A stretch of 54,281 nucleotides of DNA, filler included, from Sphacelaria rigidula (GCA_964200075.2; 3 parts of 3 records of this genome joined end to end with filler, not necessarily neighbours in it), one strand, 5' to 3'. Shown: positions 4,501 through 40,300, numbered from the whole stretch's first letter. Notes: generated by a model not told the origin, from the letters alone. Translations and numbers: made by a program.

Positions 4501-4840
4501 TCTCTTGCGCATTCGTCACCCTTGATGCGCGCTCTTGTTCGATGTCCCGCCCACGACCCACAGAGGCAAATCAAAAGCAATAGCCAGTGCGCGTATTGTA
4601 CTCAAGGACGATAGGTGTCAGCTCCGCCGCGCGTCAACCGTGTCTTCGAATCGAGCGTGTTACCAAGGTGAGAGTCAGGCAGACTGTCCGTCCGTACTGC
4701 GAACTTGGGTTTGGTCGTTAGAGAACAACGGCCTTGTTTGTGGTCGCGCAGCTGTCGAATATTTGCACGTAGCGCGCATCCGACGAACTTGCGAGAGGGA
4801 AGTTATGTACAACCCTTGGGAAGTTCCGCGCTTGGCCTGA
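1585..4840. repeat. Diverged long-period repeat (~660-780 bp spacing)
   Basis: gcctt..gtggtcgcgcagctgt...gccgacgaatt.gcgaga at ~1585, ~3281, ~3951 and ~4731; cagctccaccg.gcgtcaaccgtg at ~3177, ~3838 and ~4619. Confidence 0.8.
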
Positions 4841-6801
4841 CAAGCTTATATGCCTTGCTACGAATTCCGCGAGCCGTTGTGATGTCACTTGGTATCGCAA
4901 CGATGCAGCTAAGCCCACTGCGTAGTGTTCAGTATCGCAGCTATCGGACTTATCGCGACATCGCAACAGGGGTGCCCTGGGGACAAGTTGAACGAACAAC
5001 TTGTAATTGCATTTTCCGCACGGGACGCGGGACAGTCGGGGTTATAGCATCCATCGGGTGCCGGGATGCGATGAGCACCAAAACATACAACGATTCAAAA
5101 CACATCGCACCCCGTTGCCATGATTCGCACAATTAAATACGGTATTTGATGTCAGGTCATGAGTCGTGTGTCAAGATAGCCAAATCGAACCGACGCAGCA
5201 GTCTCACCCGTGTAGAAACATGGTACCGACCTTTCCGCTCCCGGTTTTGATTCCTTCATCTTTTGTTGGACTTGTATAGAAAGCAGGCAATACGCGGCCG
5301 TGGAGTCTGGTTTCACCGCATATTTTGATGGATCGACTATACACACGCGTCTTTGTAAGTTGCCTCGCAGACCTTGACGTCCGCCACTCATCCACATGAA
5401 GCCATTCCGGCCTGTACCAAAACCAAGGCTACAAGTAACTCTTTCATTGACATACACAGAAGAATCTTGCTATTTTTTCGTGCGCGCGACATTGTTGGAT
5501 CCTGCGAGCTCGAGCGATTTGAGAAAGTAACGACAAGAAATCGAAGAAGGAACTGCACCATGAGACACAGGAATCACGGTACTTCGCAGGCGAAAATGTG
5601 ATACGGCGGAACTTTTTCGGTGCTTGGCAGCTAGCCCCTTTCCCTTCCTTCTCATGACCCAATCAGCTTCGTGAACACACGATGTTGGTGTTGGGACGAC
5701 GCCGGTGGAGTCTGTGCCGAATAGCGTATACAAACATCAAACCCGTTCTTAATGTAGACTATGTGCCGTTAACAATCAACACGCGTAGCGCAGCGCCATA
5801 TCTTTGAGATTTCATTAATCACCTTCGCGGCTTGATGGCTGATGTTTCGTCCACAAACGAAAAAGCTTCGACTCGCTTCCCTGATCAAATTTGCTACCAA
5901 GCCACCTCCTTGTTTGTTCCCTTCAGTATTATCTACGCAAAGAGCAGCAAAATGGCAGAATGAAACGGGCACAAATCTATTATTCTCCAACTTTTGACCA
6001 GACGCAACATTTTATTTACTTGGACTTATCTGGAGCACCGGAACGTGGAATGACGATTCCGGAACAGATCAAAATTTGCCACGTATAAAACGGCCTGAGC
6101 ACGCACAGAGGCGCTCTCGTGCGCCAGGCAGGTGAACAGGGATGCCACTTAAGGCGTTTCCACACTCGACTTTCCACTAGACGCGCGCCTTCTGTCAACC
6201 TTTGAACCCATCTTGCGGCAGACACGCCTCAGCTTCGCGCAGCAGTCGTTTCACCATACTTCGCAGCCGCCAGACTCTGGGAAAGGGGAACAGATGTGGA
6301 AGAGACCGTTCCATGACGAGGTTCGTGACCCTCAAGATACCAGGCACATGTTTGCATGCTTTTGAAACACAGCTGGGTATCAGAGAGAGACAGAGCATCC
6401 ATGATGTAGTTTGCTTGCCACAACCGTCCTTCGACCGACTTCGTTTTACGTTGAAGTCAACGGCACTGCCTGATCTGTTGGTTGCAATGGACAAAGTTCA
6501 GCGCTCCCACCTCCATCGACTTAGCGAGAAATCACATTTTAGGCCCCCATCGCGACCGACCTGCGGATAAATTCTGAGAGGCGTCGTCAGACAAACTCAT
6601 AATGTATTCCAAGCACCCTGACAGGAGCCTGCATGCCTAAATTAATGGCATCAAGTGCGCTTGCCATTCGGCCGGCTTTTCAAGCGACGCCCCCCGCTCT
6701 CCATCGAGATGTTCGGTTAAGCCTATTTTCACATGATTCCCTACCGTTGCTTTCCCCATCGCATGCTCGCCCCCAAGGACAGAGAGAGCGGTGCTTCCGA
6801 G

Positions 6802-7789
6802 ATGTTGCGGCTTCTTTACTTTGCCTTCCTCTACTGGCGCTACGAGGGGAACCTATGCGAACTCTTGACTTTACGGGGACGGTCTGAGGATTCGAGCATC
6901 TCAGGGGGAAATATCGACGTGGAGAACAACACCAACTCGCCATCAGCCCCAGTGGATGGTTCTCATGGGCAAGAGCGTTCCGGGGGGACCCGGCACTATG
7001 CGGGTGCCGGGCAATACACGGAAGGAATCAAATTTGACACTGGCAACAATGACCTGAAGAGGAGTGTCATTGTCGAAAGGTACACAGCGTTGACGGTGCT
7101 GACGTCAATTGCGTCCGATTTGGACCTGTTCGCCGATTGGTACTTTTTCAAAGAGGCCCTCGGAGAACAAACCCAACTCATTTACATATTAGCGCTGATT
7201 TTCTCAGCGATCGGGACGATCATGTACTTCTTGCTGGCGGTGGAGTTTCACCCCATCAGCAAGGTGTGGGCATGCTGGCGGACGGTGGAAAGACTCGGCC
7301 CCGATGAGCATGTGCCCCTTGGTTTGCAACTGGCTATAAATGTCGTAGTCGAAGATATCCCGCAGCTTGCCATCACCATTGTGGTCATTGCAAATGACAA
7401 ACTTTCTGCAGCGAGCGTGCTCAACGTCGCTACAGCTAGTTTTGCTTTGTTGGCAAAAGCGGCGGAGGCATTTGCGACCCGACACGACTTGCCTATGTCC
7501 TCGGAGTTGCGCCTAATCGAAACAGACAAGGGGGTCGTCCGGTACCTTGTGGATCAGCGACGCAATGCTGACCGGTTAAAAGAAAACGCGGTTAGGCTCG
7601 CATTGGCTTGCAACAGATATCGCCAGGAGGAGATATCGGAACAAGAATTTGGGAGAAACAAGCGTCTCACAGCCATGGCCTTTGAAGTCTTCAGGATTGA
7701 TCCGAGCTTCGTCTTGAGTGGAGGACGTTCCGATATTCGAGAGAAATTGGGTGGTTCACGACTGGACCTGTACGGCGCTCAGCTCGAAG
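6802..7789 (+). CDS. LRR gene exon 1: N-terminal region, four hydrophobic helices, helical linker, first half-LRR
   Basis: Within ORF 6733-7836. Hydrophobic segments ALTVLTSIASDLDLFADWYFF, LIYILALIFSAIGTIMYFLLAV, LQLAINVVVEDIPQLAITIVVIA and SAASVLNVATASFALLAKAA. Ends RLDLYGAQLEG at donor G|gtggga. Confidence 0.85.
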
Positions 7790-10700
7790 GTGGGAAGCCT
7801 TCGGTCTCTAGATGCTTTACTCTTGAGAACACGTGAGGCATCCACGACCGCTATTTTTCTCACGTGCAGAAACCACTTGCATCTCGTTGGGCAAAGAGCG
7901 GTCCGAGGTTGAACGTTCAGGAACGGCCACGGAAAGCCTTTCGCTCAAAAGTGATGGATGGACAACACGTGGTACGATCCTTTTCTCTGTCTTGCACATA
8001 CCTCCGTAGGTCAACGCGGCCAGACAATAATATCCGGGAACTGACCGTTTTCTCTCGCTGCAAAATCCAGGACCTATCCCGGCTGCGCTGGGCGATCTGA
8101 GGGACCTGCAGGAGTTTACTCTCAGCTCCAACAAGTTTGATGGTGAGTGATTTAATTCATCTTCCACCCGCCCCTCATACTTGCGAGGCACTATCGACTG
8201 TCCTTGCATGTATTTGTTATTTTCGAAAAGTCTGCCGGCATCGCTCTTTGCCACAGAGCGAGGATGTTAAACGGCACTGATTTGTGCTGTTTGAATGCTC
8301 TACAAACATTCGCCAGAGTCATGCAAGCACGGTTCGGCTGGCTGTCCTCAGTGCCCTTGTGAGCGTACGGGATGCCGTTGGACAACCTGGCCTTGCTGGC
8401 CCACACATGACCTTCGAAATCTACGATTCGGCACATGCTTCGCCTCGGTTGGCCTGTATACTTGAGAGCCATCTCGCTCTACGTTGCTGGATGAGGGCGT
8501 TGGTACGACGATGTTACCAATCGGTTACGTACCGTGGTACAACACAGTGGGTTTTTGAGCGCTGGCACCTTATTCACGGACACGGGTCGTGGTCGTTTTT
8601 TTATTTTGCCGAACACATCGGAACCCACCTTTCCGTCGGGACTCCTCTGCCCCCAGTCGTGAAGTAAAGGGACATAAGTATTGGAACACGTGGCAATGCA
8701 TCTTGGTGGGACTGCTTCGTGTCGGAGCAATCCTGACAATTCAACACTAATCAAGTTTTGAAATATGATGGACAAGACGTTCACAACAGGGAAAAATCGA
8801 GTCAACCTCCGAAGAGGGAAACAGACTGGTGGACCCTCTCACATAAAGAAAAAAAAATGGCGAAAGCCGCAGAAGGTTGGATGGTGAGGTAAGTCCAGTG
8901 TCGTCTCCTTCCTGCGTGACCCTTGCTGATGAACCCCCATACTTCCGAACTAAATGGGACGAGCACACAACCGAAATGTAAACTAAAAACACTTCCAATC
9001 TGCTCGCTCAGACCAGGATGTCCGCAATAATTGATTTTCATAGCATCTACGGCACTGCACTCTGCATGTGAGGTACACACTGCGTTTTCCTTCGTTTCCC
9101 CTATCCGAATATGCAGGGAGCATCCCGTCGCAGTTGGGCAACCTTAGCGCTCTCACAAGACTCGACATCAGGGGCAACAACCTGACCGGCGAGTATCGGT
9201 ACATTTTTTTCGGCATTCATCATGCATGCAATATGATTTCGGATGAAAGCCGCCAGCACGCCTATCACCCCAACAGAGACGAAGCCCTCGTGCCAGGAGA
9301 GGTGGTGGATTCTTGACGTTTTTGCACAACGCAATGCAACACACCCATATTTCGTGCTGATCCGACTGCAAGGAGCCTTTCGTTCCTTTTTTGCCATATA
9401 GGCTCAAAGCACAGGTAAAGAAACGAATGTCAGTGTCTATCCGCCTCGCCGGCATATCACAGAGTTTCAAGAGAAAGTCACTCAGACGTTGATGAGCCGA
9501 AGAGATAACGCACTGATTGCCTTACTAGATAATCGGCGCGTTTGTTCCGGTCGGCTGAAAGTTGGGGGTGTCATCTGCGCATGCGTTGTTATGCGGATAC
9601 CAAATCAACGCATCCAGCTCGGTTTTTCGATAGCGAAAACAGAAATCAGGTACGTATGGGGTTTGTGATGCAGGATTCGGACGGGGCATGGATTATCCCT
9701 GTTCGGCTCTTCGGGGTCCAATCGCCGAAAAGCAAGCAGATTACTGCAAAATTCCATTTGAATTACGCTTCCTGCGTTCATGTTACGGGTCAAGTGTCTC
9801 CTTGGCTTCTGATTCTGCCGTTTGCCGGCACATGCCCTCAAGCTCTATTTCCCCTTGTACCCCTTGCACCCACACGATGGTTACAGGGAGTATCCCGGAG
9901 GCATTGGGAAACTTACGTGCGCTGACCGAACTCTACCTGAACGCGAATAAGCTGACCGGTGAGCTTGAATTGAAGTTTTTGTCCTTATTTAAAGACAGAT
10001 GTAGCTCCGTGGATAGCCGTCGGATTATCGTTCAGGTTTTCCAACGAGCTCAACGGCCGTAGCCACAGGACTTGTTGGTCGAAGGAAGATTCTTAAAGGC
10101 CGGGCTCTGTTCTCTTTGGCTGAACGTATTCACAGCCTTGGGTGTGTACGTGTTGCACCCCCGAAGGATGGTCTACACTTGGTTGATACATTTGCTGTAT
10201 TGGAAATCGCTCTGGTGTTTGAGGTTTGGCGACAAAACCAGGAGGAGGCGGTAACACTTGTGGGGCCGAGGGTGAAACTTCGTTTTCGTCTTGATAACGA
10301 GGCAATAATCGGCGGCGGGAGGAAACCAGGAGTCCGGCAAATGAGGAAACGTTCGACACCACGGTGCAGTTATCGAGCCCACAAGCGCAACCGTGACGTT
10401 CCCTTGCAAAACCCATGCAGGACCCATCCCCGCAACCTTGGGGAAGTTGGTCTTGCTGAAGGAGGTTCGCCTTGACGACAACGAATTGGAGGGTAAGTGA
10501 AACGTGTCCCGCTGATCCTTCGTTTCGGGTGTTCCACGTGCCAGATTCTAGTCGTGGTTCTCCGGCGCGTTTTCGCCAGCCATGTCCTCCCAGGCTACTG
10601 CTGGGTTAGGGATTCAAGTTTATGCTTTCCCTCACTCTTACCATGGGCAATCGCAAGAGGAGAGAGGACAAACCTCAATTTTGACCAATAGACAAAAGGT

Positions 10701-13700
10701 ATGGAGCAATGATCGCAGCATTACATGGTGCAGAAGCAATGTAGACTAAGCCGCGGAGTATTTGCACTCAAGGTCACATCAGAATAGGCGGACCTCTCTG
10801 AAAAACATTGCGATTGTGCAACAAGCTTGGCCCACATCGCGATCTACCACAAGCCACATCACGTAGTACCCACAGCGCACGCAAGGGTCACGGCCAGCCT
10901 TAACAGGATGATCCAAGCGCACGGTCGAACAGGTCTGGTCGTGTTGGGTTCCCCAGCGAACAAGCAGCTGAAACTTGTTTTACGAGGTTTGGGTCGTGAA
11001 CGAAAACTGTACCATGTCACCGTTTCTCAGATCATTTTCCCACAGCCCGACACACCTTTCCAGCGCACGAAAACGTCAGAGAGGAAGAACTGCGACGAAG
11101 AAGGAAACATTTCCGCGGTTTCGCTTGGACCTTGGCGGGGTTTTTTTGCGTGAACGAGGCTCGTGCAGTGTGGCATACGAAGTATACCGCTACGAAATGT
11201 ACCATTTGCACCGGGCGATTGCACTTTGATCGGTCTAGTGTCAGTGCTTCACATCCTGTCCTTTCCGAAAATAACAAATCGCCTTGAATTGCTCCCCCCG
11301 CTTGTTCGCCTCGCGTTCTCTTCAAGAGAATATCCCACAGGCATTGGGCAACCTTACGGCCCTGGAGACTCTCTGTCTAGAAAAAAACAAGCTTACAGGT
11401 GGGTACCTGGAACAACGCAAGGGTACCTTCGGTCGACAAAGTCAGCGGTACCCCCGTACAAGTGGGCTACCCTTGTTTTTTAAATCGCTTGTAGGAGGCC
11501 AGAAGGCAAGTCAGAGATGCTCTGCATTCTGCTGTAGCCTCGATTTTGATTACGAGCGCCTCGCCTCTCACACGTACTGTATCTCGCCTCGTGCTTTGCA
11601 GGTGACATCCCTCCCCAGCTCGGCGATCTCACGAACCTTTCTACTCTTACCCTTGGTCACAACGAGCTGACGGGTGAGACTGTGAAAGGTTGCACTGCTT
11701 TTTTCGCATATGCATATTGCTGACATCGAATACTGCCGATACCCGCCTTCTGTCAAAGCACGTACAAGAAGTTGACTTGCCGCAACAACAGCGGAGGAAA
11801 CCTGCCGACTTGTCGGTGCATGCTGTCGATTTTCGTTTGTCGAGCGGAATGATCCTCTCCTCATTCTCCGCGAGTTCAATCCCGGCAGGAAGGGGTCAGC
11901 ACCTACATTCTGCTAACATCATTCGTTGCCGTTCGCGCGTAGCCGCATTGCGTCAGAGCATGACCAAAATTGGCCGTTCGTATTCGCTTTTTCTGCCGTT
12001 ATCCGAAACTTCGTACAAATAATCCATTAACTGATTCCCGTGTTTCGACCGAAATTTACCTCTCGTTCTCTGCAGGTTCAATCCCGTGGCAACTGGGAAA
12101 TCTGACACGTCTGTACACCCTGCGCTTCCAAAAAAATCGCCTCAAAGGTGGGGGGCTCTGCAGCGAAGTGGCGATTTGCCTACCTCGAAGGTCGTTGCCA
12201 CCTCGTCGTTTGGTTTTTGCAAATGGTGTGATCTTGATGCGGGATGATTGCCAGTCTTTTTTGACATCTGATCTCCCTCGTTCATTGCAGGTCCGATACC
12301 TTCGCAGCTGGCTGGGCTCACTGGCGTAAAACAAATTTACTTCACGGGAAATCTCTTTTCAGGTATGAGGGGGGAGTTTTCGACGGAAAACCTGAATCAA
12401 GGTGGTGTCATTTCCAGTCAACCAGTGCTTCATTTTCGAATGACAATCGAACTCATGGTGACAGCCTCCATCCAGTCTCCTGGACGTATGCACTTTAGCC
12501 AGGCGTTGACGTCACAAAACCTGAGCGTGTGGACTCAGTTCAGTTATGCTGCGTTCTTTTGATCCGCACAGCTTGTATTCGGCCGCCAAGCTCGGCAAGT
12601 AAGAAAAAGGTCCTACTGTCCTCGAGGTCTGTGCAAAGGATATTGAACAACAAATATGTTTTAATGATCCTTGATTTCCAGCCAAGTACGATGTCCCCTC
12701 ACACCGAGGCAAAGCAGTTTTTGGAACCACTCAGGGGTTCACCATAGTAAATCATGCAAATAGGAGAAATGTCACGAAATTTTTAAATGTCGTGTCTTGT
12801 AAAGAGTCAGAGAAACAACGTATATGAGAGGGCGTCACAAGGATATGTTTGCCGTACTCAATATTGAAACTGTAGGGCTGAGTCTTTGCCAAGCAGAGCT
12901 ACTCTTCCAGATTCGAACATCTCAGCTGATGCGAGCTTTTGGTACAAGGGAAGGAATCCCACCCCTCACTGCCTCATGGTCACAATATTCTGTTGTCGTT
13001 GTCTACACAGTACATTAAACCGTCCGGGGAAATTCGGAGTATGGCACATCCATATCGAATAGTATTATTTTCTGCTCTTTTTTGGCGGACGATCTTCTTC
13101 AAATGTACGAGTATGTTCGCGGTTGAGGGCGCTAATGGCGCCCCGTCCCCGCTGCGCGCAACCGCAGTAGAAATCCTGGAACCTAATGCCGAGTGGTTGA
13201 TGGGTACGCGCTGTGTCTCTAGCACGCACACATACGACCAATCGGACTACGTGACGGACACAGGTCCATATATGCTTTTAAAGATCTGAAAGAAGGCGCG
13301 CGCCGGCGCACACATACATACCCTCTCACTCTCACCCCGCTCACTTTTACCCGCCGGCTAATTCGCCGCCGCTCTCTTTCTATTTTTCCGGCATACTTCG
13401 ATTTCTCCCGAACGATGCCTGCGTCATGACATCGACACACGTGGTTTGAATGAATGAACACTGCCCTCAACACAAACGTACATTTGCCACAAATACATGT
13501 CGACACCAAGCACATGCACACTCGACGGTGAGCTGTCATTCTGAATCTCCGAAACGCAAAAAACACCCGCTTTTCCGACTGTTGAAATAAGAGAAAAAAG
13601 CATTCGAACGGCCGATAACACCGAGCTGCGCCTCGGCGAACTTCGCAGCAAACTCGACCCGATAACGTGCATGGCACGGGCTCAACCCTCACATCTGCAG

Positions 13701-14898
13701 GCATATACGCATTGCAATGCCGAAACTCGCGTACAACCTCAAAAGTGCTACACCGATCTGGACCTACCTTCAGCAAGACAGGTCTAGCTTGCTTTCGGCA
13801 GTGCTCTCGGTGTTCAAAATCATTCGAGAGAGACCGGACCAAAATTTGGAAGATGCACACGTCATGCTTCGTGTCTACATCACATTATATTTCAATGTGC
13901 ACCTATGCAGGTCCAAGTCGGGGAAAAGTAACACCATGTCGATACACATACATCATGGCGACGCCCATAAGAGCAAACCTGACCACTGCACGGCCAAATC
14001 GCTGATGGCTATCGGTGCACCGTGCTTTCGATTGGCAAATGTTTGCAGCTCACGGAAAACTCGAGAATATTTTAACACACCCACGCTATCGGTGGGCCTT
14101 CATTTAAACTTACGTGCGTAGACAACTGTCTCTTTGATGTGTATGTGAACAGTACGTCACGTAAGTGTACCATTCCTTTGTTTCGTCTAACATGTTTTGC
14201 GTTTGTTCCATTCTTCGTCACATTTCACCCACGAAGTTGTGCCAAGTGGGTGTTGTCGGCCCCACCCTACGTGCACCGATGCTACGTACATGGTGCCCGA
14301 ACGGGTGAAGTTTCGGCGGCAATTTCAAGAATTGCGTGCTTCATTATTTGGATCCCAATTGCTGCCTTTCCATCGACAACCGGATTTTTGTACGTGCGAG
14401 TACACTTGAATTGTTGTCGCTACTGACGACGTCATCGGACGCGCCTGTCGTTGCTTGATTTCTCAATTACTTAGACTGCGGCCGACCCCACGAGTCGCGT
14501 CTTGCTTTGTTCGGGACGGAGTGCATGTCTGCACGCCTGAATTGTTTTGTTCGGGATGTACACTTTCCTTTTTGAAGCCTTTGTCGTGGGGGCGGAACGA
14601 CCTCCTCTGTTACAACTTTGTTCTCATGTATCTGGTCGTAGAACCTTGGGTATTCGTTTGTTTTAACGACCTACCCCGCTCCCAATCAAATCGTGTCTCG
14701 GCCGGTAGTTCATCTCGTCGTTCGTGCTTGTTTAAAAACAATCAGATAGTTTGAAGCGCATCATTTCGGGCGTCTTCAGCTCATTCTTTCTCTCTCCCCT
14801 TACTTCCAGCTGAAGAGGTGGCCCAGCTCAAAAGACTGATCCCAAGCTGTCGCACTTGGGACGACGGGGACTATGGAGGTTTGAGACTTGTATCGTGA
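6802..14898 (+). CDS. Spliced gene: 4-TM XK-related-like membrane module + 8 exon-encoded LRRs + LRR C-cap (~550 aa)
   Basis: Exons 6802-7789, 8071-8142, 9117-9188, 9887-9958, 10421-10492, 11327-11398, 11602-11673, 12076-12147, 12291-12362 and 14810-14898. All introns are phase 1 with AG acceptors and GT donors (GC at 9189). The joined frame is open to TGA 14896-14898. The start is uncertain: ATG 6802, ATG 6733, or an upstream exon via the AG at 6776-6777. Confidence 0.85.
8071..8142 (+). CDS. LRR exon (72 nt) GPIPAALGDLRDLQEFTLSSNKFDG
   Basis: tccag|...G|gtgagt, plant-specific-type LRR consensus. Confidence 0.9.
9117..9188 (+). CDS. LRR exon (72 nt) GSIPSQLGNLSALTRLDIRGNNLTG
   Basis: tgcag|...G|gcgagt (GC donor). 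Confidence 0.85.
9887..9958 (+). CDS. LRR exon (72 nt) GSIPEALGNLRALTELYLNANKLTG
   Basis: tacag|...G|gtgagc. Confidence 0.92.
10421..10492 (+). CDS. LRR exon (72 nt) GPIPATLGKLVLLKEVRLDDNELEG
   Basis: tgcag|...G|gtaagt. Confidence 0.92.
11327..11398 (+). CDS. LRR exon (72 nt) ENIPQALGNLTALETLCLEKNKLTG
   Basis: ttcaag|...G|gtgggt; the first residue is E instead of the consensus G. Confidence 0.85.
11602..11673 (+). CDS. LRR exon (72 nt) GDIPPQLGDLTNLSTLTLGHNELTG
   Basis: tgcag|...G|gtgaga. Confidence 0.92.
12076..12147 (+). CDS. LRR exon (72 nt) GSIPWQLGNLTRLYTLRFQKNRLKG
   Basis: tgcag|...G|gtgggg. Confidence 0.9.
12291..12362 (+). CDS. LRR exon (72 nt) GPIPSQLAGLTGVKQIYFTGNLFS
   Basis: tgcag|...G|gtatga. 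Confidence 0.9.
14810..14898 (+). CDS. Terminal exon of LRR gene: C-cap AEEVAQLKRLIPSCRTWDDGDYGGLRLVS*
   Basis: Strong pyrimidine tract ttctttctctctccccttacttccag, phase 1. NLFS-AEEVAQLKRLIPSC resembles a typical LRR C-terminal capping helix. Confidence 0.75.
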
Positions 14899-18295: not shown

Positions 18296-19759
18296 GGCGT
18301 TTGGAGTTGTGACAAAATAATGATTCTGAACCCCAAAAGTGTAGTGTCTACCTCAGTCTACCAGCGGGGGGGTCGCTGTCTAAGGGTTAAGCCCAAACAT
18401 CCCAAATTAAGCTGGACCTTGACCCTTGGACCGCGATGTGGTTAGTCCATCTATATCACAACACTTTTTTCAAGTGAAATTGACACCGATTCTGCAGGTG
18501 ACTTACCCTTGCGGTCAATTTCACTTGAAAAATGTATTGTGATAAACAGCTGGGGTATAGCTGATGACGTGTCCATTATTCCTCCGCGTTATTCGTTTAT
18601 TAGCCTGGTCATAGGTTTTGGTCGTTCAGGCTCTCATTCACCAGCATCATTGTGTAACTGGTCTACAAGAGCAGAAAGTCCTGTCCTGTGTAGGTTCATG
18701 CACGTGAGAGTTAATGAATTAGCATGCAGCGGAGAAACAACTCTCCACCTACACAGTAGTCACGCCAGCATCCTCATATTCCTGCCGCCCACGTCCCTCT
18801 TTAAAAGCACCCCGTCATCTGTTGGTGATCAGTCACGTACAGTGGGCAATCCATGCGCATGTACGTCTTACTGTCTGTTGTCTACGCTCTCTGTAGCGTC
18901 AATCATACGGAATGACTGTATCCATCATTTGTATTTGTATGTGAGAACGTGAGGCTGTATTATCACCTCGAGACATGGTGATTGCATTCGAGCTGAATCC
19001 AGGTCGGAAGCCATCCACGCCACGTACGCCCAGAACTCCCAAGATCAACAGTGCCGCAAGTGTCCTCGTGGGCGCCATATCGTAGTTGGACCCAAGCTAC
19101 ACAGCTACCGCGGATGCTTGCTGGCTGTGGGAGAAGTAAGTGGCTTTTCGGGTTAATACCCAACGACCCGCGGTCAACGTACTTGAGTCTCTGGACACTT
19201 TCTATGAATCACGGGTCTGACATCCAAGTCAAGGGCGAATGTTTGTTGCAGAGTGCTGTATTCACTCCATTTGCCCGCGTAGTGGGGCGACAGTGTACAC
19301 CAACACAGGCGAAAACGATGTACATAACCACTACAGGCACAAGGAGCGGCAGCATCTACTCTATCATATAATCCCAGGTGTAGTGTTTGTGTAAACCCTC
19401 TTCCAAACAACAGAACATCACGTCCCTTCCCACGCAACATGCAGATGTCACTTTGGGCAGTCAAGACCTCAAGGAGCCTTCCGCTGCACACGTACGATAG
19501 GGAGGAGCGAGCCTACACCTCCACCCCCACCAAGATAGGTGGACACTGCCTCGATCATGTTCGAAACGGCCTAGACTTATGGAGCGGAAGCGACCGCCCG
19601 ACCCCTCCCAGCAACGAGTTTGAAAAAGACACTACTCAGCTCTTACTACCGACCGGCCGCTTTGGCGGCTTATCTCCATGCGCCGGTGACGTAATATTGA
19701 GGTTTGGAAGAAGGTCGCAGAGACGGCCCGCTCTACATCGGCGGGCGCACACCCACAGC

Positions 19760-20959
19760 ATGAACAAAGTTCTGCCTGCGGAACCGCGTCCTCGTGCTGG
19801 ATCTTGTGCCATGTTTCCTATGTACGTAGCTCCTGTGGAGTTGCCGCCAGACTCCTTGGCCTGGCGGCATATTCCAGGCGCTCACAGCGAAGGCGAACGC
19901 GTCATGATGCACCTGCAAGAAGAACACGGTTCCTCACCGTCGCCTTCTTTTCAGCAGCAGGAGCAGCTGGACCGGCAGGACCGACAGCCGCAGCAACGGC
20001 ATGGCAACTACTACTCTAGTCGTAGTGGTAGAAATAGTGGTGACCACGGTGGCGTGGCGACGAAACACGCAGGCGCGCTGATGGCCGTGCTGCTGTCCAA
20101 GCTTGCCAACGGCAATGGCGTCAGCAACACCAGTGTAGTTTACGGGGAGGAAAAAACAGACGCGATAGTACTGGGCCCTGAGTCTTCGGGGAAGGTTCGT
20201 CACACCCACACGGCGGCAGATCACCTGCGCAGCATTGACGAAATCACAATAACGCCAAGAAGCTTGGCCGCCGAAGACTTGCTTGCCGGCGGTTCCATCA
20301 ACGGCGGTGCTGAAAGTGGGATCCCCGCTCTGTGTGAACGAAGTCCCCTCACCAGTAGCGCGGCGGCGGCAGCGGCGGCGGGGGACGGAGCTACACCAAC
20401 TGCCGACCCGTCCTGGCAATGGAAGTCGAGATTACGGCAGGCGACTAGCTACTCCAAGCTCCGGCGGTTCTCATTTGTTCGAGAGCTGGGCCGTGGTTCC
20501 CACGGCATCATCCTGTTGGTGAAAAAAGTCCCTAGCGGTGAGCTGCGCGTCCTCAAGGAGAGCAGTTTTCTGTCAGAGGCAGTCAACGAAGCTCGGCTAT
20601 TGCTGCTGGCGGGAGCCGGTAAAAATAACGCGGAAGGAGAGACGAGTGGGGATGGTGATGTCGATTCAGGAGTAGATGGGGGCATGGGAGGGAAGGAGAG
20701 GGACGACACTGATGCACGTTTTTTTTCTTCTCATGACAGCAAGCGGCACAACGCGGGGCGGGGTAGCAGATACGTTGGCCCGAACACGGAAGGGCGGCAG
20801 GGCGGTGCGGCTTGGCTGCTACAACACAGCGGAGGTCTCGTTGCTAAGGAGGATGGAGACGAGAGGATTCACGGGAAGAAAGGACAAAGAGTGGATGATC
20901 CTGGCGTGGTGGGCGCCGCCGCCGGCGAGCGACCCGAGCAACGCGGTGGGGTAATAAAG
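19760..20959 (+). CDS. Kinase exon 1 (low-complexity N-terminus, subdomains I-III, long insert)
   Basis: Part of ORF 19439-20968. ATG at 19760 (MNKVLP) is a plausible but unproven start. Donor AAG|gtgcga. Confidence 0.8.
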
Positions 20960-23900
20960 GTGCGATGAGTGAACATTTTGATGGAAGATTTGCCGCACCT
21001 GAAACGCTTTCGAATTTGTAGTTCCCCCGGCTTGGCTGCTGTCACCCCCCCAACACGCACATTGTGGGACATGCTTTTTCGTTCGTGTGGCCGAAAAGAG
21101 GGAAATGGCAAAAATGCGCAGGCGCAAAACCTGCGCACAAAAAACATATTAGAGCCGCTTGCTGTGGAGATCACTCCATTCCCCACCTATACACATATAT
21201 ACATACATATATACCAAACCCCTTCACATATTTCGCATTATTGGTAAACATTTTCAGCCTTGTTTCAAACATGTAACCTCCTTTCACCACGCCACGCACG
21301 CGCCCTCTGACGCCTTGAAACACCCCACCCCTACATACTATAACGTCATTGGGATACGCGCATGCAGCTTCACGACTTCTTCGTGGAGACGCTTGGACAT
21401 ACACCCTTGGCATTTCTAGAATTGGAATTCTGCGGTGGCGGTGACCTGCACGACCTCATACTTGCCAGTGAACGGGATGATCACGTGGGTGGTGAGATAC
21501 ATGGGGATCGCCTGCTGAAGCCGGCGATCTTCGGAGGAGGGCAGGCACGGGATAAGAGGGGCACGGGTGTGCCAGCAGATCAGATTGCCAGGGTTATTCT
21601 CGGCTTGTGCGAGGGTCTGCAATGCCTTCACGAGGTTAGCATGGCACTATTTTCTGCGGGGGCCATTTTTCGTCCGTCTTTCAGGGCTGTTGGTGGGCGG
21701 TGTGATTAGACTCTTGCCTTTCCTGAAGCTTTTTGCACTTTTTTTTACTCGCCCCAAAATAACGGTCGTCGCTCTCCGGTGTGTGCACGCACGCTATGTG
21801 TCTGTGTCTCGTTTTTCGCTATGCCCTTCATTCTCCAGCGGGGCGTACTCCACCGAGATCTGAAGCCGGGTAACGTGTTGCTTACCAAATCGGGCGCCGT
21901 TAGAATTGCAGACCTAGGGGTGTCCACAAGCTTGGAGCCCTCGCGGCCCCTAACTGAGCACGCCGCGGGCACGATCCCGTTCATTGCTCCGGAAGTCCGC
22001 AAGTTTCTCTTGGGGGCGAAGGTCCACTACTCAGGTACCTTGATTATTTTGCGTCCATTCCTTACATACCCGTGGCCGTTTTTTTGTTTTCATTCGTTGC
22101 GTTTTATAATTTCCCAAAATATGATACAGCAGCGTAAATCTTGAGGACATCAGTCTAAAAAAGGTATGCCATTCACGAAACAAATACGCGACATCGGGGA
22201 CATGTGCTTCACCCGTGCCCTGAAAAAACGGGGGAAGCATGTTTTCTCGCCTCGTATGCCTGTTCGAAGAAGAGCGCCCGTCGACGGCAATCCTTCTTGC
22301 CCTAGTTAGACAAGATTTCGACAACTACATCTTACCTACGAGTAGTCATACTTTTCCTACATGTTTTTTCTGGACTGCCCTACCCATCTTTTCTAGGCGT
22401 GTGCGGACTGCCTGCAGTACGTACAGTATCCCACTTGGTCGGCGCGTGCTCCACCCAAACTTCCAACGACAGTGACCACGGCACTCGCAGAACGGGTTCT
22501 TTACTGGCTTGCTCGTCATTCACCAAACACAACGGCCAAACTCGGCGTGCCCTCTTTCGAACACAGTATGAATCTATGTTCTCACGGTGGCAACCAATTA
22601 GTAGGTGTTTGAGGGGAAAAGATCCCTCGTTTTTTGTGTTTTCGTTCTGCGGCTTTCCCCCCGATGAACGGATGGGTCGGGAATATGTGCAGCTCTCTCG
22701 TGTCAAGCACATAATGGCGTCGCCTTGTACCTCTCTGCCGACTCGCGACGCAAAGTGCATGTGTTGTAGGGTGGCGCGTGCTGCTCGTGACAAGCCTCAG
22801 AAGCAGTAGTAGTACTAGGATAGTCTCTATGATCTCCCCCCGAGAAACACTCTCGATTTTTGTTGACATTCCGATGATATAACCACTCGAAAACCTGGTC
22901 ACATGAACAAATGTATCACACTCGCTTGGGCGGCCTGCTATACCCTGACATCTGAATACAACAATGACACAACAGTAGCACTTCTACAGCGGTATTGGCT
23001 TGTGTAAGCCCATGGACGGAGCCGACCACTTTGCTGCCCGTGCTGTACATAGTACGTGATCGCATGCTGTTACTGCCGCGCATGTTGTCATCAATCAGCC
23101 ATCGAAGGTCACGTCAATCGATGATACACCGTGCAGCCCAAGGGCTTCCGCAGGCAGCACACTCTACTGACAATAACACGTGCGCTCTCTTTCGCGAGTC
23201 GGCAGAGAGGTACAGGGCGACGTCATGATGTGCTTGACACGAGGGGATTGCACATTTTCCCGATCCGTCCGTTTATCGGGGGAAGAGTCGCGGAACGAAA
23301 ACACAAAACCGATGGATCTTTACCCCCAAAACGCCTACTAGTTGGTTGCCGCCGCGAGCAGGTAGACTCGGAAGTCCATATCCGAAAAAGGATACGCTGA
23401 GTTTGGTCGTTGTGTTTGATGAATGACGAGTAAGCCAGTAAAGAACCCGTTCTGCAGGTGCCGTGATTGCTGCTGCTGGAAGTTTTGATAGCGTACGCGC
23501 CAACTACATGGTATACTGTAGGAACTGCAAACAACCCGCACCGACCTAGAAAAGATGGGTAGGGCAGTCTACAAAAGGCATGTAGGAGAAGTATGACTAC
23601 TCGTAGGGAACATGCTGTCGAAATCTTGCCTAACTAGGGTAAGACGGGTTTCGGTCCACGGACGCTCTTTTGCGCATGGCCGTATAAGGTAACAAAACGT
23701 GTTTTTTTTCACATTTTTTTGCAGGCACAGGTGCAGCACATACCCCCCAAATGATGCGCTTAAATAATTCCTAGCCAGAACAATGTTGGCATGTGATCCC
23801 AGTGTCGCGTGTGTGGTCCATATAGTACCTTACTTGTCAGGGCGAAAAGCATGAAGGTAGTCCTTTTTCTAGACTAACCCCCACAAATGTGTAGGGTGGT

Positions 23901-31589: not shown

Positions 31590-34529
31590 GGGGCTGACTC
31601 CCAGCCTGTGGCGGGTGTGTCAACTGCGACCATGCACGCACACACCTGAAGTGTAGAGGAAAGGCATCACCGTCGACAGTAGCCACAACAGCAACATCAG
31701 TTATAGGGCAGCAACCGTCTCGCTTCCGCACCTGTTGCTTACGCTCGACGATGATGACGATACTAAATCCTGATGCAGCAGAATTTTGCCCGAGGGAGTT
31801 GTTCCCAACGGCAGAATTTGCCGCGGCTGCACAGCCCGCGGCAGCGGCACCAGGTAACCATCGCTGAAAACGTGGGATATGTAGCAAGGAGAGTAGAACT
31901 GCTAGGTATTTACACGTGTGCAAGCACAAGAAACGATGCGATGGTGGAACCGGTCGAGGCATGTCGGGACTGCTGCGCCCGGAACCATGTCTGGTAACCA
32001 GCACGCATGGAGCAATCTCCATTTCAGGACAGAAATATGTACTTGCATGTAAAAGGACAGAGGGGAAGAAAAAACGCCCCGCTCGGAAAAAGAGGCGCAG
32101 GAGACGAGCAGATCGGAGGGCTCCCGACAAGAGGAAAAATACTGCGAGGGCAAGGTCCAGGATCGGCGAGCTTACTGTCGGTACCTGCAATGTTCGCACG
32201 CTCGCTTTCAAAGGTGTGAATGGCATTGGCCACAGTAAGATTGTCCTGAAATCTTGGGAGAGTCTGGGCTGCAATATCGAGAGGGCCAATCGGTGTTCAG
32301 TGCGGCGGGATTTACGGTATTCTGTTCCGGTGACACAAGCGGGGTTAAGGGGAAGGCAGGACAAAATGGAGGTAGGGATCGCTATCAAGGAGTCGATTCT
32401 GGAGGAGATGGGGGGAAAGGTGCTACAGTCGAGTAGATTAGTGCTCGACTTATGAAGGTAAAACTTGAACTACACGGCAATTCCAACGCAGTATCATTTG
32501 TAGTTGGATATGCCCCGACGGCGACCGCTCCGCTCCGCGACAAGAACAAGTGTTGGGATGACGTATCCGATGCCATCTCACAAGTACGTGGCAAGGAACA
32601 TCTAGTTTGTCATGATGGATGCCAACGCCCGCACTGGAAAATGAAGGGGGGTGGGGTGGAGAGAATGATAACAAGGTACTTGGCGAATACGGGCGGGACG
32701 TACTGAACAAGAACGGTGAGAGGCTACTGGCCTTCGCAGGGGAACAACGCCTTACCGTGCTCAAAACATTTTTCCAGAACACTCAAGTGGGGCATATCGT
32801 TCACTTTCCAAAGCTCTAACGCTGGGAAGGGACGCTATCGCCTCGACTACGTTCTCACCAGACAGACGGACCGATAACTCGTACGCAAGATCTCCGTCCG
32901 CCGTCCACCACCCTGAAAACGCGAGTCTGATCATAACCTCGTATTTGCAAAGGTCCGGCTCCTTGGTCGCTTCGCGCCCAATTGCAAGATGCGGAAACAT
33001 GTACCAAGACGCAGAACCGCTGACCTTGAAAGGCTGATGGCTGCCGCAGCAGACACCGCGCCCCACGAAAGAAACCAACGAGGCTCCCACGGCTCGTGCG
33101 CGAGTGCCGAGACCAAGGCAAAGATCCACACTGCATGTATGGCGAGGGAAACAGCACGGAGGGCATCGACGTCAACGCCCACTGACACCACCCTCAAGGG
33201 GGGTCTTGAAGAAGACCAACAAGGAACTCGGTCGTGTTATCCATATGCGGTCGAGAGATTATTCGAGAACTAAGCCGACTTGAAGCACACATCGCAGAAG
33301 GTGACCAACGCGATTGCTACAGGCACCTGACAGGAATCGATGTCGAAGGGGGAAAACCATGTAGCTCACAGCAGGAATATATCCATGACAACAAGGGTAA
33401 ACTGCTCAGAGATGTGAAGCTCATCCGCGGGCGGTGAATACAGTAGATTGACACCCTTCTCAACACCAGGTTGCCCCACCTCAATTCAGCAATCATCGAC
33501 CAACTCCGGGCGCGACTTCCGAGCACGTCGCTGGACGTGGTGCCTACGATAGATGATACAGCAGATGCCATCCGATCTATGTCCAATGGAAAACCCGTTT
33601 GCCCAGATGATCTGCCGACTGAGCTGTTGACAATACTTCTCGACGGCGACGACACGAGCGGCCTACAGGGACTCCACGCTATCGTCGTTGATATTTGGGG
33701 CGGAGCAGCGGTACCACAAGAAAAGAAGGATGTCACCATCATAGTTTTCCACAAAAAAAGAATCGGACGGAATGTGGGAACCACGAAGGAATTTCATTTG
33801 TGTCACACGTCGGCAAAGTGCTCAAGATATTCGCCCGCCGCCTGAGCACCTACTGCGATGGCAGTGGAATCCTGCCTGAAGAGCTGTGCGGCTTCCGTCC
33901 CGGACGCTCAACTTTCGACGTGATGTTCAATGTCCGACGACTCCAGGAACTTGGCCGGAGACGACGGATCCCGCCCTACATGTGTTTCGTCGACCTCACG
34001 AAAGCATACGATTCTGTCGACCGCTCAATGCTGTGGAAAGTTCTGGAACGCTATGGCGTCCCACCCACCATGCTCTCGATCATCCGCCAATTCCACGATG
34101 GTATGCAAGCTCGGGTGTGCACGGACGAAGGGGAATACCCGGAATGGTTCGACATCGGACAGGGCCTCCGACAAGAATGCGTCCTGGCACCACTGCTGTT
34201 CAACGTTTTCTTCACGCCGGTGCTTGCGGTGGCCCTGGCAACCTTCAGCGATGACCCCGACATGTCGGGGGACCCGGTGCGAGTCCGAAAAATCGCATAG
34301 GGATACTTCCAACAGGAGTGTGCGGTGGCATGGGGCGAGTCAGACGTGACCACAGCAGCCGCAGTGGAAGAGGTACGGTCCTTATGGAGTATGCTGCACG
34401 CCGATGCCGCCTGCATCATCTCGCGGACATCATCGAGCCTCGAGAAGATGATGACGGTGATTATGACGGTCTGCGCGGAGTTCGGGTTGAACCGTGTCGG
34501 AAGTGAAGACGAAGACCATGCGACTGCTC
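31590..34529 (+). mobile_element. Decayed LINE (RTE-like; APE endonuclease + RT), 3'-truncated, downstream of kinase exon 4
   Basis: Endonuclease motifs TVGTCNVRTL, VVGYAPT, DANA, N.NG.RLL and SDHNLV. RT motifs GFRPGRSTFD, FVDLTKAYDSVDR, GLRQECVLAPLLFN, and YADD decayed to HADA. Multiple stops and frameshifts. 5' boundary approximate. Confidence 0.92.
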
Positions 34530-37344: not shown

Positions 37345-40300
37345 GTACGTGAACAACTGGTTAGGCGTCGGGCTGACTAGCCTGAAATTGTCCCCGGCAG
37401 CCTTTGACGTATTTTCGCTGCAGCACATGATAGTAAAACCACTCAAAGGGGCATTCTTCGATGGTTAAGTACACTTTCATAACGTGAAACAACCGTTGCG
37501 ATCGTCTGAACAATATCCCCCTCCAAACGCCTGCATGTGGCAGTAACGCGCAAACAACGGTCGCAGCATTGACATCTCATCTACCCTTCCTCCTCTCGCA
37601 TCCTTGAAACTCCCCCCGTACATAGGCTGATCCGAATACTTTTCCTAATTCTAGATTCCTTCCCTCCTATTGGTTTTCATTTCTCATGAAATATCACAGC
37701 GGAGCACAACGGCGAAAGTCCCTCAGAACCCTTTCTCTTCGTGCCTGTTTATGATAGGCGGCAGCGTAGCCCGATCCCAGCCCATTTTTTGTGCTCCCGT
37801 TTGGCACACTTCCAACCCATTTCATTCCTCGGTACAAGTCCGCCTCAAGGAATCGACCTATCTATGTCCGGTACACGCGTTGCGTTTTGATATCGCGGGT
37901 GGTATCAGCACTCCCGCACCGCGTCGGCTCTCAGCGAATAAATTATGTTTGCTACTCACGCTCTCACGTCATTGGCAACGTAAATAAGGTGCTCGTAGGA
38001 ATCAAACCTGTGTTCTTCCGACCTGACGGATCAGAGGTACCATTCGGCCACCGGAACGCGGCGGCTGTTCTCCCTTATTCCTCGTGTTCCTGCCATTTCC
38101 TTGAAACAATTTCCATCAACAGCTGGAGGGAGCGCTAGAAGCTCTATCAAGCATCGATAACGTCTCCGTATCATCCGCTGCCTACGGACCAAACGGAGGG
38201 CGCATGTGGAACGTCACCTTCTCAGGGGCCACGGTAGAAGGCAATGTCCCCCTTCTGAATATCGACACCTCCTTCCTTATCGGCAGCGGTGTAACCGCTG
38301 AAGTCACGGAAACAGTCACTGGAAATCAGCCACGCGGTCGGTTCATGCTGCAAACTGATACGGCCCCTCGAGGTTGGCCAGAACATCGCTCCGGGTGGAT
38401 CGATGTCGGGGCTTCCGCTGCCAGTGTTGAGGCAGCGATTGTCCAGATCCCTGGAATTTCGGCGGTAGACGTCAACGTCAACCTGTCCCTTCCGACCGTC
38501 GGTCCAATAGCTTGGGAGGTTACGTTCGCGCATCGCCAAGTAGCGGTCGGAGATTACTACAGTGATGATAATCTTGGATTCGTTGCCACCGGACAATCTG
38601 GCGATCGCCCGTCACTTCATGTCGTTCGGTGAGTCATTGTTCACAGCAGGCACTTTAGAGACGTATCGCGCGCATTGTATACTTGTCAATGTTCTGGCGT
38701 GCTGTGCATCTCTTTTATACCCATTCGAAACCTCGTTTGGTGCTCGTTTAGTCCTCTTAGTCACCTCTCCTTTCAAATGCGACAGTACTTTGTTGATCAA
38801 ATGTAGCGCTAGGTCGCTGAATCACGGATTGTGACACTCTTTCAACATCGCCCCGACGAAAACGCTTAGCCAGATTGATCGGCTTGATGCCTTGTATACA
38901 TATTCTAAACGAGCTAGGCCGCAGCTGCACGGTGACGGTGTCAGCGCCGCTGCCATAACTCTGCGAGACGGAGAAAGCGCAATCGGCGGTGTATACAAGC
39001 TATACTTGATAAATGATGACGGTGAGTCTAACGCGACGATCGCCGCGGGCGCTTCAGCAGCATTGGTTCAAGAAGCTCTTGTTGAAGTTCTTAGTTTCCC
39101 GACGGAGACAAACGTGACTCGTTCGGGGCCATTGGATGATAGCCTGGCGTACACATGGAGCGTGACGCTGCCAAAGGGCACGAGTGTCTTTGGGAACACG
39201 AGTCAAGATTTCGGAACACTTTCGGTGGAAGGATCCGGACTTTCAGGCGGAGGATCTGTGGTGAATATCACGTTGGTTCGCCCCGGAACTCTACCTCTTG
39301 GAGGAACATTTAATGTTAGCCTCGGTGACGAGCATGAATGGGCTGCTTTGCCGCACAACGCAACGGACGTGGAGGTCGAAGAGGCAATCGAGTCATTCTC
39401 CGTGTCTGGCGGCAACGTGACCGTATCATCATCAGAAGTGCTCACTGAAGGACTCGCCACCATCGGAACGAACGTAACTGACAGGAAGTCTAAGCATTGG
39501 GCTGTGACGTTTGAGTCGTTGATGGCCGCAGGAGATGTACCACTGCTCGAGATCGACGCTTCCAATTTAACGGGGAGTAGCGGGGTGGAACTGTACGCCA
39601 ACGAGACCTTGAAGGGAGTAACCGCCGACATCCAACGTTTATCTATCAACGGATACAACGGGACATTTTCTATGTTCATGAGGCAAGAGGTCAACGCATC
39701 ATCCACCAACAATTCTTCTGCAGATTCATCCATCGTCTCGAGCCCACTCTCATGGGATGCGACTCCTTCGGAGCTTGCAGAAGCTGTGTACGACATCACG
39801 GGGACAAAGGCGTACATCGAACGTTTCCCTTTTTCTGCAGACAGCAATGTTGATGGCGACGGAGGAGGTTATGACTGGTATGTACTCTTTGCGGAAGCCC
39901 TCAACGAGACGTGGGGAAAGCTTCAGCTGAACTCCTCTGGGCTGACCGCAGATGACACATTTCTAGGCGACGATAGTGACCGAATGGCCAACCTGACCCT
40001 CTTCAGAAACTCTACCGCGATCGGCATAGGTGGCGGTTTCATCGTACGCTTCGGTCAAACCTGCAATGAACGTGCTTCTGGGGTGTATTGCTCTGTGATA
40101 GGAACTCCCCAACTACCCTTCGATTCGTCGGCTGCGGAGGTCACGGCGGCATTGATTACCCTACCAGCCGTTGTCGACGCCGCTGTGTATGATAATGGAG
40201 GCAGCACTGAATGGGACGGCATTGCACAACCCGCTCCGGATGATTTCGGTGTGGCTTCAGCGGGGGTGCGATTCCGAGTAACACTATCTAGTGTAGTATT

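Follow-up and report, generated by a model that had tools for sequence, protein, structure and literature searches.

A membrane module resembling one repeat of XK-related scramblases, joined to a cassette LRR array in Sphacelaria rigidula: a candidate sensor-controlled membrane effector

Gene structure and the LRR array

The window, that is the whole 54,281-nucleotide (54-kb) stretch of Sphacelaria rigidula DNA analysed, filler included, carries on its plus strand an expressed and intron-rich gene, the product of which is a 550-residue membrane protein. The spliced coding sequence is 1653 nt long and contains a single, terminal stop. From the start ATG at 6802, the frame of the first coding exon (6802-7789) remains open to a GT donor at 7790, a length of 329 codons plus 1 nt; on the basis of the open reading frame, the AlphaFold2 model and the contigs, this exon encodes the membrane module, preceded by an N-terminal helix and a disordered region and followed by a helical linker and half an LRR. 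The last coding exon (14810-14898), defined by contigs and the spliced sequence, encodes a 29-residue tail and ends in a TGA stop at 14896-14898, with the 3' UTR continuing past 15000. All nine coding introns are borne by spliced contigs from four public runs (X1-X4), the joints of which coincide with the predicted introns, and contig depth in these runs is 60-100 over the exons and 0-5 over most introns. Exon 1 is linked to every LRR exon by these transcript-like contigs, as the preliminary description had supposed.

Further upstream, a 5'-UTR exon has its 3' end at 4633-4667, next to a GT donor at 4668 (reading ...CCAAG/GTGAGA); this end was placed by the consensus of contig loose ends, which matches 4633-4662 exactly, and the contigs reach approximately 275 nt upstream of the junction. 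The 5'-UTR portion of the first coding exon occupies 6778-6801, following an acceptor AG at 6776-6777, with contig loose ends at 6773 and 6781 and an alternative acceptor AG at 6781-6782 in one run. As the 5'-UTR exon ends at 4667, the interval of 6802-14898 originally proposed for the gene holds as the coding span, but the gene itself starts further upstream.

The linker is followed by eight LRR exons, at 8071-8142, 9117-9188, 9887-9958, 10421-10492, 11327-11398, 11602-11673, 12076-12147 and 12291-12362, each supported by contig joints and a pattern scan. All are 72 nt long, in phase 1, and encode one 24-residue repeat apiece; the second is followed by a GC-AG intron (9189-9886), evident from both the contig joints and the spliced sequence, and the eighth by the 89-nt tail exon. 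With the half repeat encoded by the 3' end of exon 1, which closes that exon, this gives the 8.5 LRRs first counted. The tail carries an (L/I)P-x-x-C...W cap common to the relatives of this protein. A full scan of the 54-kb window, on both strands, for G-x-x-P-x-x-L-x5-L-x-x-L-x-L-x-x-N-x-L, with at least seven of eight positions matching, recovered the eight exons (7-8 of 8 positions) and one unrelated match at 45343.

In brown-algal LRR-ROCO candidate immune receptors, a 72-nt exon likewise encodes one 24-residue 'type I' LRR of the form G-x-x-P-x-x-L-x5-L-x-x-L-x-L-x-x-N-x-L (Zambounis et al. 2012, PMC3341825), in agreement with the exon rule first given for these genes, and all eight exons fit this cassette at 7-8 of 8 positions. 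Several features nevertheless separate the two. In the present gene the LRRs are C-terminal to the membrane module, whereas those of LRR-ROCO proteins are N-terminal, and there is no ROC-COR GTPase: a Pfam search of exon 1 returned no domain match, hence no ROC-COR, no NB-ARC (with TPRs) and no kinase, while the remaining exons consist of LRRs and the 29-residue tail. Nor, unlike at LRR-ROCO loci, did the both-strand pattern scan find intronic LRR relics in the 54-kb window, where the gene is single-copy, with no local paralogues. Exon shuffling or clustering, as is typical of candidate immune receptors in brown algae, is thus not in evidence at this locus.

The membrane module and its relatives

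The AlphaFold2 model of the exon 1 product, with pLDDT values of approximately 80-88 over the helices, opens with a conserved N-terminal helix and a disordered stretch, after which come four membrane helices, with a short helix between the second and third, and the helical linker. Helix 1 (residues 96-118, 7087-7155), delimited by the model and the family alignment, is acidic, containing D106, D108 and D112. Helix 2 (residues 125-146, 7174-7239) has the highest hydrophobicity of the helices. The short helix (residues 150-159, 7249-7278) lies in a K/R-rich loop after an invariant E-F-H, at the place of IH1 in XKR proteins. Helix 3 (residues 173-197, 7318-7392) bears a polar stripe of Q176-N180-E184-Q188-T192, and helix 4 (residues 203-225, 7408-7476) is Ser/Ala-rich, as first described, with N208, T211, K219 and E222 invariant. 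The peptides DLDLFADWYF and VEDIPQLAI noted at the outset are indeed found in helices 1 and 3 (DLDLFADWY at 7117-7143, EDIPQL at 7351-7368). Four membrane helices are therefore modelled, as originally described, but the term 'hydrophobic' does not suit helix 1, which has a mean of 3.85 acidic residues and falls below a Kyte-Doolittle threshold of 1.3. Only soluble helices and LRRs follow helix 4, the first being the charged linker (residues 232-316, 7495-7749), modelled as long helices, so that the protein contains one set of four helices plus one short helix.

The distribution of basic residues is markedly asymmetric. The segments before helix 1, between helices 2 and 3, and after helix 4 contain on average 3.23, 2.62 and 2.46 K+R residues, whereas the loops joining helix 1 to helix 2 and helix 3 to helix 4 contain 0.08 and 0.15. 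This sets both ends of the module in the cytosol, and hence the LRRs are probably cytosolic too, as had been suggested.

Sequence searches giving 19, 29 and 5 matches, combined with three added sequences, yielded 34 relatives in total. All those named are from brown algae (Ectocarpus spp., Pylaiella, Scytosiphon and Hapterophycus), where they carry the database label 'unnamed protein product'. Among them are 16 annotated gene models (ncbi or eukprot), of which 13 carry LRR Pfam domains. Precomputed Pfam lists for the full-length relatives hold LRR families only, except in three long models with extra families, which look like gene fusions; together with the unmatched exon 1, this bears out the view that no ROC-COR, NB-ARC or kinase domain precedes the stop. 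The first 14 residues of the protein are hydrophobic, and the N-terminal motif is kept in 24 of the 34.

All 34 relatives have D-x-[DN]-x-x-A-D-[WC], the middle position being D in 33 of them, and E-[DH]-x-P-Q-[LF] is similarly universal, P187-Q188-L189 being kept throughout with one L-to-F change; D108 and D112 of helix 1 and E184 of helix 3 show little or no variation. This is a small conserved brown-algal family that is in annotated proteomes already, but without a name. No published description of a family joining an XK-like module to LRRs was found in the literature searched.

Likeness to XK-related scramblases

XKR proteins are composed of two structurally related repeats, each of four TM helices and a partly inserted helix, so that the whole protein has eight of the former and two of the latter; TM1 and TM3 carry acidic residues as a hallmark of the family, and TM3 of XKR9 kinks at a conserved PQL (excerpts of PMC8298096). 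Scrambling by XKR8 requires D26, D30, E137 and E141 (excerpts of PMC8500837). D125, D129 and E313 of XKR4 correspond to D26, D30 and E141 of XKR8, XKR4 TM3 breaks at P316 and its vestibule is built by TM1-3 of the N-terminal repeat (excerpts of PMC12334663), while an XKR4 acidic triad given as D123, D127 and E310 binds Ca2+ (excerpts of PMC10495444). The XK motifs named at the outset, D-x-x-x-D in helix 1 and E-x-x-PQL, are placed at these same positions in the excerpts of PMC8298096, PMC8500837 and PMC12334663.

The algal module, as modelled, shares with XKR proteins (XKR8, XKR9, XKR4 and CED-8; PF09815) the order TM1, TM2, short loop helix, TM3 and TM4, with D-x-x-x-D on TM1, E-x-x-P-Q-L on TM3 and cytosolic termini. 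In XKR4, XKR8 and XKR9 these motifs form the helix 3 kink and a buried acidic cluster, the latter put forward as a Ca2+ site and lipid stairway; the equivalence of the algal residues to them is by helix order and spacing rather than superposition. As the algal module is a single repeat, it departs from the two-repeat architecture that defines XKR proteins. The algal protein, in which neither a C-terminal repeat nor a caspase site or plug helix was seen, ends instead in a helical linker and LRR array, and it shows no HMMER-level similarity to XKR proteins. The family is found in brown algae, whereas XKR proteins are described as conserved from nematodes to humans (excerpts of PMC12334663).

In HMMER searches, neither exon 1 nor any of 13 family members matched PF09815 at E<=10, and the sequences of solved XKR structures were unmatched by the module profile, the helix 3 peptide or the most divergent member. 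A Foldseek search with a model of the module only ranked XKR9 first (7p14; E 0.23, prob 0.97, TM 0.53) and second (7p16), XKR4 fourth (9boj; prob 0.96) and XKR8 fifth (8xej; prob 0.95), at identities of 13-17% and weak E values of 0.2-0.4, all above 0.2; neighbouring rows had a prob of 0.1-0.3. VIA-align gave Z scores of 12.1 for XKR9 (rmsd 3.7, 129 aligned), 10.8 for XKR8 and 10.3 for XKR4. In each case only approximately residues 1-189 of the XKR chain, its N-terminal repeat, were aligned. In a fold search independent of Foldseek, XKR9 was third (Z 10.9) and XKR4 fourth. A de novo four-helix bundle scored 11.1, an iron-binding bundle 10.9 and TARP or Cav gamma subunits approximately 10, level with these Z scores of 10-12, and by the tool's own caveat helical bundles may score so high without kinship. 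Among the nearest ESM Atlas clusters, PF09815 was the only Pfam family, with a score of 0.83-0.84, on 25% of the cluster's members.

The XK-like reading first put forward is partly supported: the top Foldseek rows, the restriction of the match to the N-terminal repeat and the motifs speak for it, the missing profile match to PF09815 or XKR sequences and the tie with generic bundles against it. The fold is probably akin to the XKR N-terminal repeat.

The same results bear on a simpler proposal, in which the module is a mere membrane anchor: a generic four-helix bundle tethering a cytosolic LRR adaptor, with the acidic and PQL residues serving packing and the XKR likeness convergent or due to chance. 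No sequence profile links module and XKR, the structural scores equal those of unrelated and designed helix bundles, and Foldseek E values are only 0.2-0.4, all of which this proposal would accommodate. A plain anchor has no need, however, of a near-invariant D-x-D-x-x-A-D-W and E-D-x-P-Q-L over 34 members, or of the helix 3 polar stripe; both motifs, on matching helices, are the XKR hallmark, and four XKR entries stand at a Foldseek prob of 0.95-0.97 against 0.1-0.3 for neighbouring rows. An anchor is a serious but somewhat unlikely explanation.

Candidate activity and alternative readings

The reading that we lean towards, by a modest balance of the evidence, is that of a brown-algal membrane protein joining a single XKR-type unit, similar to the N-terminal repeat, to a cytosolic LRR arm, and so a candidate LRR-switched lipid scrambler. 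The membrane part would be one copy of the unit that animal XKR scramblases carry twice, specifically the N-terminal repeat. Both of its ends probably face the cytosol, where the long helical linker bears the 8.5 'type I' cassette LRRs and the short conserved cap. Lipid scrambling, dimer formation, gating by the LRRs and any part in defence are inferences: the acidic core of helices 1 and 3 may thin or perturb the bilayer and thereby scramble lipids, possibly in a cation-dependent manner; a parallel dimer could rebuild the two-repeat XKR arrangement; and the LRR arm may switch this activity on binding a ligand or partner, much as animal XKRs are controlled by a C-terminal plug that can be cleaved off or by partners that bind them. 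On this account the protein is a candidate sensor-controlled membrane effector.

A bolder form of this proposal appears improbable. It holds that the protein is a single-repeat XK-type scramblase, paired to a two-repeat form and switched by its own LRRs, that executes the collapse of lipid asymmetry in defence or programmed cell death and represents the half that existed before duplication. Were this so, the brown-algal module would be a surviving form of the unduplicated half ancestral to animal XKR proteins, and brown-algal defence or programmed cell death would have a receptor-coupled executor of lipid-asymmetry collapse.

Animal LRRC8 (SWELL1) proteins are volume-regulated anion channels in which a four-helix pore domain, pannexin-like and with extracellular loops, precedes cytosolic LRRs that regulate membrane activity. 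The algal protein has the same domain order of four helices, linker and cytosolic LRRs, and might by analogy assemble into an oligomeric channel for ions or solutes that its LRRs gate, with the acidic core as cation site or selectivity element. Pannexin-type chains do occur in the fold lists at Z 8.2-8.7, and the equivalent acidic triad of XKR4 binds Ca2+ (excerpts of PMC10495444). However, the pannexin rows have an rmsd of 5.7-6.4 and score below the XKR rows, no LRRC8 chain is among the 50 matches listed in the fold searches, and the motifs, both the acidic one and PQL, speak for XKR; a channel is quite doubtful.

An inverted topology, with the N-terminal hydrophobic helix as signal peptide and the LRRs extracellular in a kinase-less surface receptor, as in plant receptor-like proteins, is very improbable: although the first 14 residues are hydrophobic, their motif is kept in 24 of 34 relatives and brown-algal LRR receptor kinases also use type I LRR exons (PMC3341825), K+R is approximately 8.3 on the cytosolic side against 0.23, the N-terminal stretch spans only nine residues between R3 and R13 (mean hydropathy 0.51 over residues 1-19), and the tail, with its one conserved Cys, lacks a disulfide cap.

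The favoured XKR-type unit with its LRR arm also differs from the LRR receptor kinases and the NB-ARC-TPR proteins in having neither a kinase nor an NB-ARC/TPR domain. A further 46 non-ROCO, non-kinase loci with type I exons are counted in excerpts of PMC3341825, and the Ectocarpus members of the present family may be among them, listed but not described.

Gene structure and transcripts

The gene is a complete CDS on the + strand (6802-14898), whose joined exons comprise 1653 nt and encode 550 residues with one terminal stop. Coding exon 1 (6802-7789, +; 329 codons and one base) is followed by eight phase-1 exons of 72 nt, each encoding one leucine-rich repeat (LRR; starts at 8071, 9117, 9887, 10421, 11327, 11602, 12076 and 12291, +), and by a last exon of 89 nt ending in the stop codon TGA (14810-14898, +). 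Transcript evidence was drawn from the contigs of four sequencing runs of one study, presumed to be RNA: nine contig joints match all of the predicted coding introns, and contig depth is 60-100 over exons versus 0-5 in most introns. As such joints are found at every coding intron, the transcripts do connect exon 1 to the LRR exons, a point on which the preliminary description had staked its reading. Eight of these introns are GT-AG and one, at 9189-9886, is GC-AG (donor GCGAGT), its joint being seen in all four runs.

Contig sequence upstream of approximately 6773 matches positions 4633-4662 and, together with the genomic sequence, places the end of a 5'-UTR exon at 4667 (+; donor GT at 4668), followed by a 2.1 kb intron (4668-6777, +) with its acceptor at 6776-6777. 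One run uses a second acceptor five bases downstream, at 6781-6782. Within this intron lies an open frame (4672-5136, +) that has no Pfam match. All four runs also contain unspliced contigs (9930-10449 and 10463-11355) that span introns 4 and 5, at a depth of 17-32 where spliced contigs reach 60-100. They may come from transcripts that keep these introns, in which case the LRR array would end with its third or fourth repeat. At 2447 nt, the last intron (12363-14809) is long; its contig depth is low (0-5), and it encloses a minus-strand open frame of 221 residues (13219-13884), again with no Pfam match.

Scanning both strands of the whole window with the 24-residue pattern G-x-x-P-x-x-L-x5-L-x-x-L-x-L-x-x-N-x-L, requiring at least seven of the eight positions, returned exactly the eight LRR exons and one unrelated match at 45343. 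This argues against the array being a chance feature and bears out the proposed cassette organisation of one repeat per exon, which is shared with the 'type I' 72-nt cassettes described for brown-algal ROCO genes (PMC3341825). The same scan identified no relic LRRs in the introns on either strand, and no local paralogue or second copy of the membrane module encoded by exon 1 was found in the window.

The membrane module and its brown-algal relatives

The structure predicted by AlphaFold2 with the family alignment contains helices 1 to 4 at residues 96-118, 125-146, 173-197 and 203-225, with a short helix (150-159) in the cytosolic loop that connects helices 2 and 3, all with a pLDDT of approximately 80-88. 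Long helices follow helix 4, up to residue 316. Ahead of the module, the model has an N-terminal helix, predicted with confidence, and a disordered segment (28-78). The preliminary description had read exon 1 as encoding four hydrophobic helices; the number stands in the model, but helix 1 is acidic (a mean of 3.85 D+E across the family) and would be overlooked by hydropathy. A polar stripe runs along helix 3 (Q176, N180, E184, Q188 and T192). Separated from the module by the disordered stretch is a hydrophobic motif beginning MLRLxYL (residues 1-14, positions 6802-6843), kept in 24 of 34 relatives with a pLDDT above 80, which might dock on the membrane domain.

These 34 relatives are the union of three word-indexed searches (19, 29 and 5 matches) and three sequences from a representative search. 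All those named are from brown algae (several Ectocarpus species, Pylaiella, Scytosiphon and Hapterophycus), each annotated as 'unnamed protein product'. LRR Pfam families follow the module in 13 of the 16 annotated gene models, the other three being partial or short. A C-terminal cap, (L/I)P-x-x-C...W, is common to the relatives, while the number of LRRs varies from about 3 to 12. The presence of two to six members in several species, and of two modules in one long model, suggests tandem copies elsewhere, outside the window. Three long models from another brown-alga proteome, P0160 (1261 aa), P0166 and P0169, have two modules or extra Pfam families and are probably tandem members or adjacent genes merged by the gene predictor.

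The scores of the relatives drop straight from about E 1e-67 to E 1e-24, for a divergent 220-residue member, beyond which the family searches detected none. A metagenome contig scan with the module-only alignment gave 322 pattern matches, of which tblastn confirmed none. The representative-library search with the full family profile (471 positions) retained the LRR columns, and its 40,795 matches were mostly LRR proteins, the N-terminal module being covered by only 14 of the best 150; dominated in this way by the LRRs, it is uninformative on remote relatives of the module.

Comparison with XK-related scramblases

The module had been described as a half-repeat resembling the XK-related (XKR) scramblases. 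No sequence match supports this: at E <= 10, neither exon 1 nor the 13 family members compared matched PF09815, with only noise from Pfam, and the solved XKR sequences were matched by neither the module profile, a 35-residue stretch of helix 3 nor P0171, the most divergent relative. Searches of PDB sequences gave no matches for the module-only alignment at E <= 10, none for the helix-3 stretch, one chance match for P0171 (E 1.7) and only LRR ectodomains for the full family alignment. What survives of the claim comes from fold rankings, weakly, and from shared motifs.

With the full exon-1 model, the first ten Foldseek rows include XKR9 (probability 0.98 and 0.96), XKR8 (0.90) and XKR4 (0.87); with the module alone, XKR chains occupy ranks 1, 2, 4 and 5 (E 0.23-0.39, probability 0.95-0.97, TM 0.45-0.54, identity 13-17%). 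VIA-align gives Z scores of 12.1 for XKR9 (rmsd 3.7, 129 aligned), 10.8 for XKR8 and 10.3 for XKR4, every time confined to the XKR N-terminal repeat (chain residues of about 1-189). A search independent of Foldseek places XKR9 third and XKR4 fourth, tied with a designed four-helix bundle (11.1) and other bundles, and hence geometry alone does not single out XKR. Among the nearest ESM Atlas clusters, PF09815 is the only Pfam family (0.83-0.84), on a quarter of the members of that cluster, which is a lead only. Unnamed Atlas clusters close to the query, from diatoms, Mucoromycota and Foraminifera, are candidate sources of stand-alone single-repeat relatives. Taken as comparisons of predicted models, the structure methods weakly favour XKR.

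XKR9 consists of two related repeats, in each of which four membrane helices are accompanied by a partly inserted one. IH1, the first of these inserted helices, lies in the loop that joins TM2 to TM3 on the intracellular side, the place that the module's short helix takes between helices 2 and 3. TM3 of XKR9 is kinked at a conserved PQL, and the hallmark of the XKR family is a set of acidic residues on TM1 and TM3 (Straub et al., PMC8298096). Scrambling by XKR8 requires D26, D30, E137 and E141 (Sakuragi et al., PMC8500837). In XKR4, D125, D129 and E313 are the equivalents of D26, D30 and E141, and TM3 is broken at P316, giving the spacing E-x-x-P (PMC12334663); the same triad binds Ca2+ (Zhang et al., PMC10495444). 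In the brown-algal proteins, helix 1 carries D108-x-x-x-D112 and helix 3 carries E184-x-x-P-Q-L; the helix-3 motif occurs in 34/34 members, and so does the helix-1 motif, with a single D-to-N and a single W-to-C substitution. Q145 of XKR8 would be the Q of the PQL motif. The family retains precisely the acidic triad and PQL kink found to be essential by mutagenesis. These motifs raise the module above a generic bundle, their equivalence being drawn from helix order and spacing.

The module and the XKR N-terminal repeat are probably true relatives. The strongest rival is that the module is simply a membrane anchor whose motifs are convergent, with which the tie to designed bundles and the absence of PF09815 matches are compatible, and against which the conserved motifs count; were the likeness convergent, the family would still be a conserved, unnamed brown-algal membrane-LRR architecture with a strikingly polar helix core. 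The combination of membrane helices and LRRs also resembles LRRC8, an oligomeric channel, but pannexin-type rows score below XKR rows in the structure comparison. A third arrangement, an inverted topology with extracellular LRRs, runs against the charge distribution: mean K+R reaches 3.23 ahead of helix 1, 2.62 in the loop joining helix 2 to helix 3, and 2.46 beyond helix 4, versus 0.08 and 0.15 in the two short loops. The positive-inside rule places both module ends on the cytosolic side, together with the short loop helix, linker and LRRs, in agreement with the location first proposed for the LRRs.

Possible function, novelty and neighbouring features

That the module scrambles lipids is possible but less likely than not. 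In XKR4, TM1-3 of the N-terminal repeat contain the functional vestibule, and a pseudo-twofold axis relates the two repeats (PMC12334663), which makes a parallel homodimer of the single repeat plausible by analogy; a homodimer prediction run from the sequence with no alignment scored 0.00, with an uncertain fold, and weighs neither way on pairing. The LRR arm would serve to regulate the module or to bind partners. Any role in immunity or cell death is conjecture. As a single-repeat XKR relative, the protein would be a candidate link from sensing to responses at the membrane, whether in algal defence or in cell death, and a new type of effector for the brown-algal LRR cassette toolkit, so far described for ROCO GTPases and kinases.

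A brown-algal family combining an XK-like or scramblase module with LRRs is not described in the literature searched, nor does one appear in the passages covered from PMC3341825, PMC11378527 or the Phaeoexplorer preprint. A further 46 type I LRR loci are counted by Zambounis et al. (PMC3341825) in a supplementary table, and Ectocarpus members of the family may sit uncommented among them. What would be new is the fusion of a single, probably XK-type, repeat to cassette LRRs, XKR scramblases being described only as two-repeat animal proteins in the XKR papers examined. A conserved single-repeat relative would offer a minimal system in which to ask whether the N-terminal repeat alone thins membranes or scrambles lipids and, coming from a distant multicellular lineage, would bear on the origin of the XKR fold by duplication.

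Elsewhere in the window, the two longest open frames (19328-20965, +, 546 residues; 38835-40652, +, 606 residues) have no Pfam match. A frame at 33692-34297 (+) matches the reverse transcriptase RVT_1 (E 1e-14) and is probably a retroelement remnant. Frames matching an IPT/TIG domain (43376-44047, +; E 1.6e-9) and an ephrin-receptor-like repeat (45787-46455, +; E 1.8e-6) may be exons of a downstream surface-protein gene.
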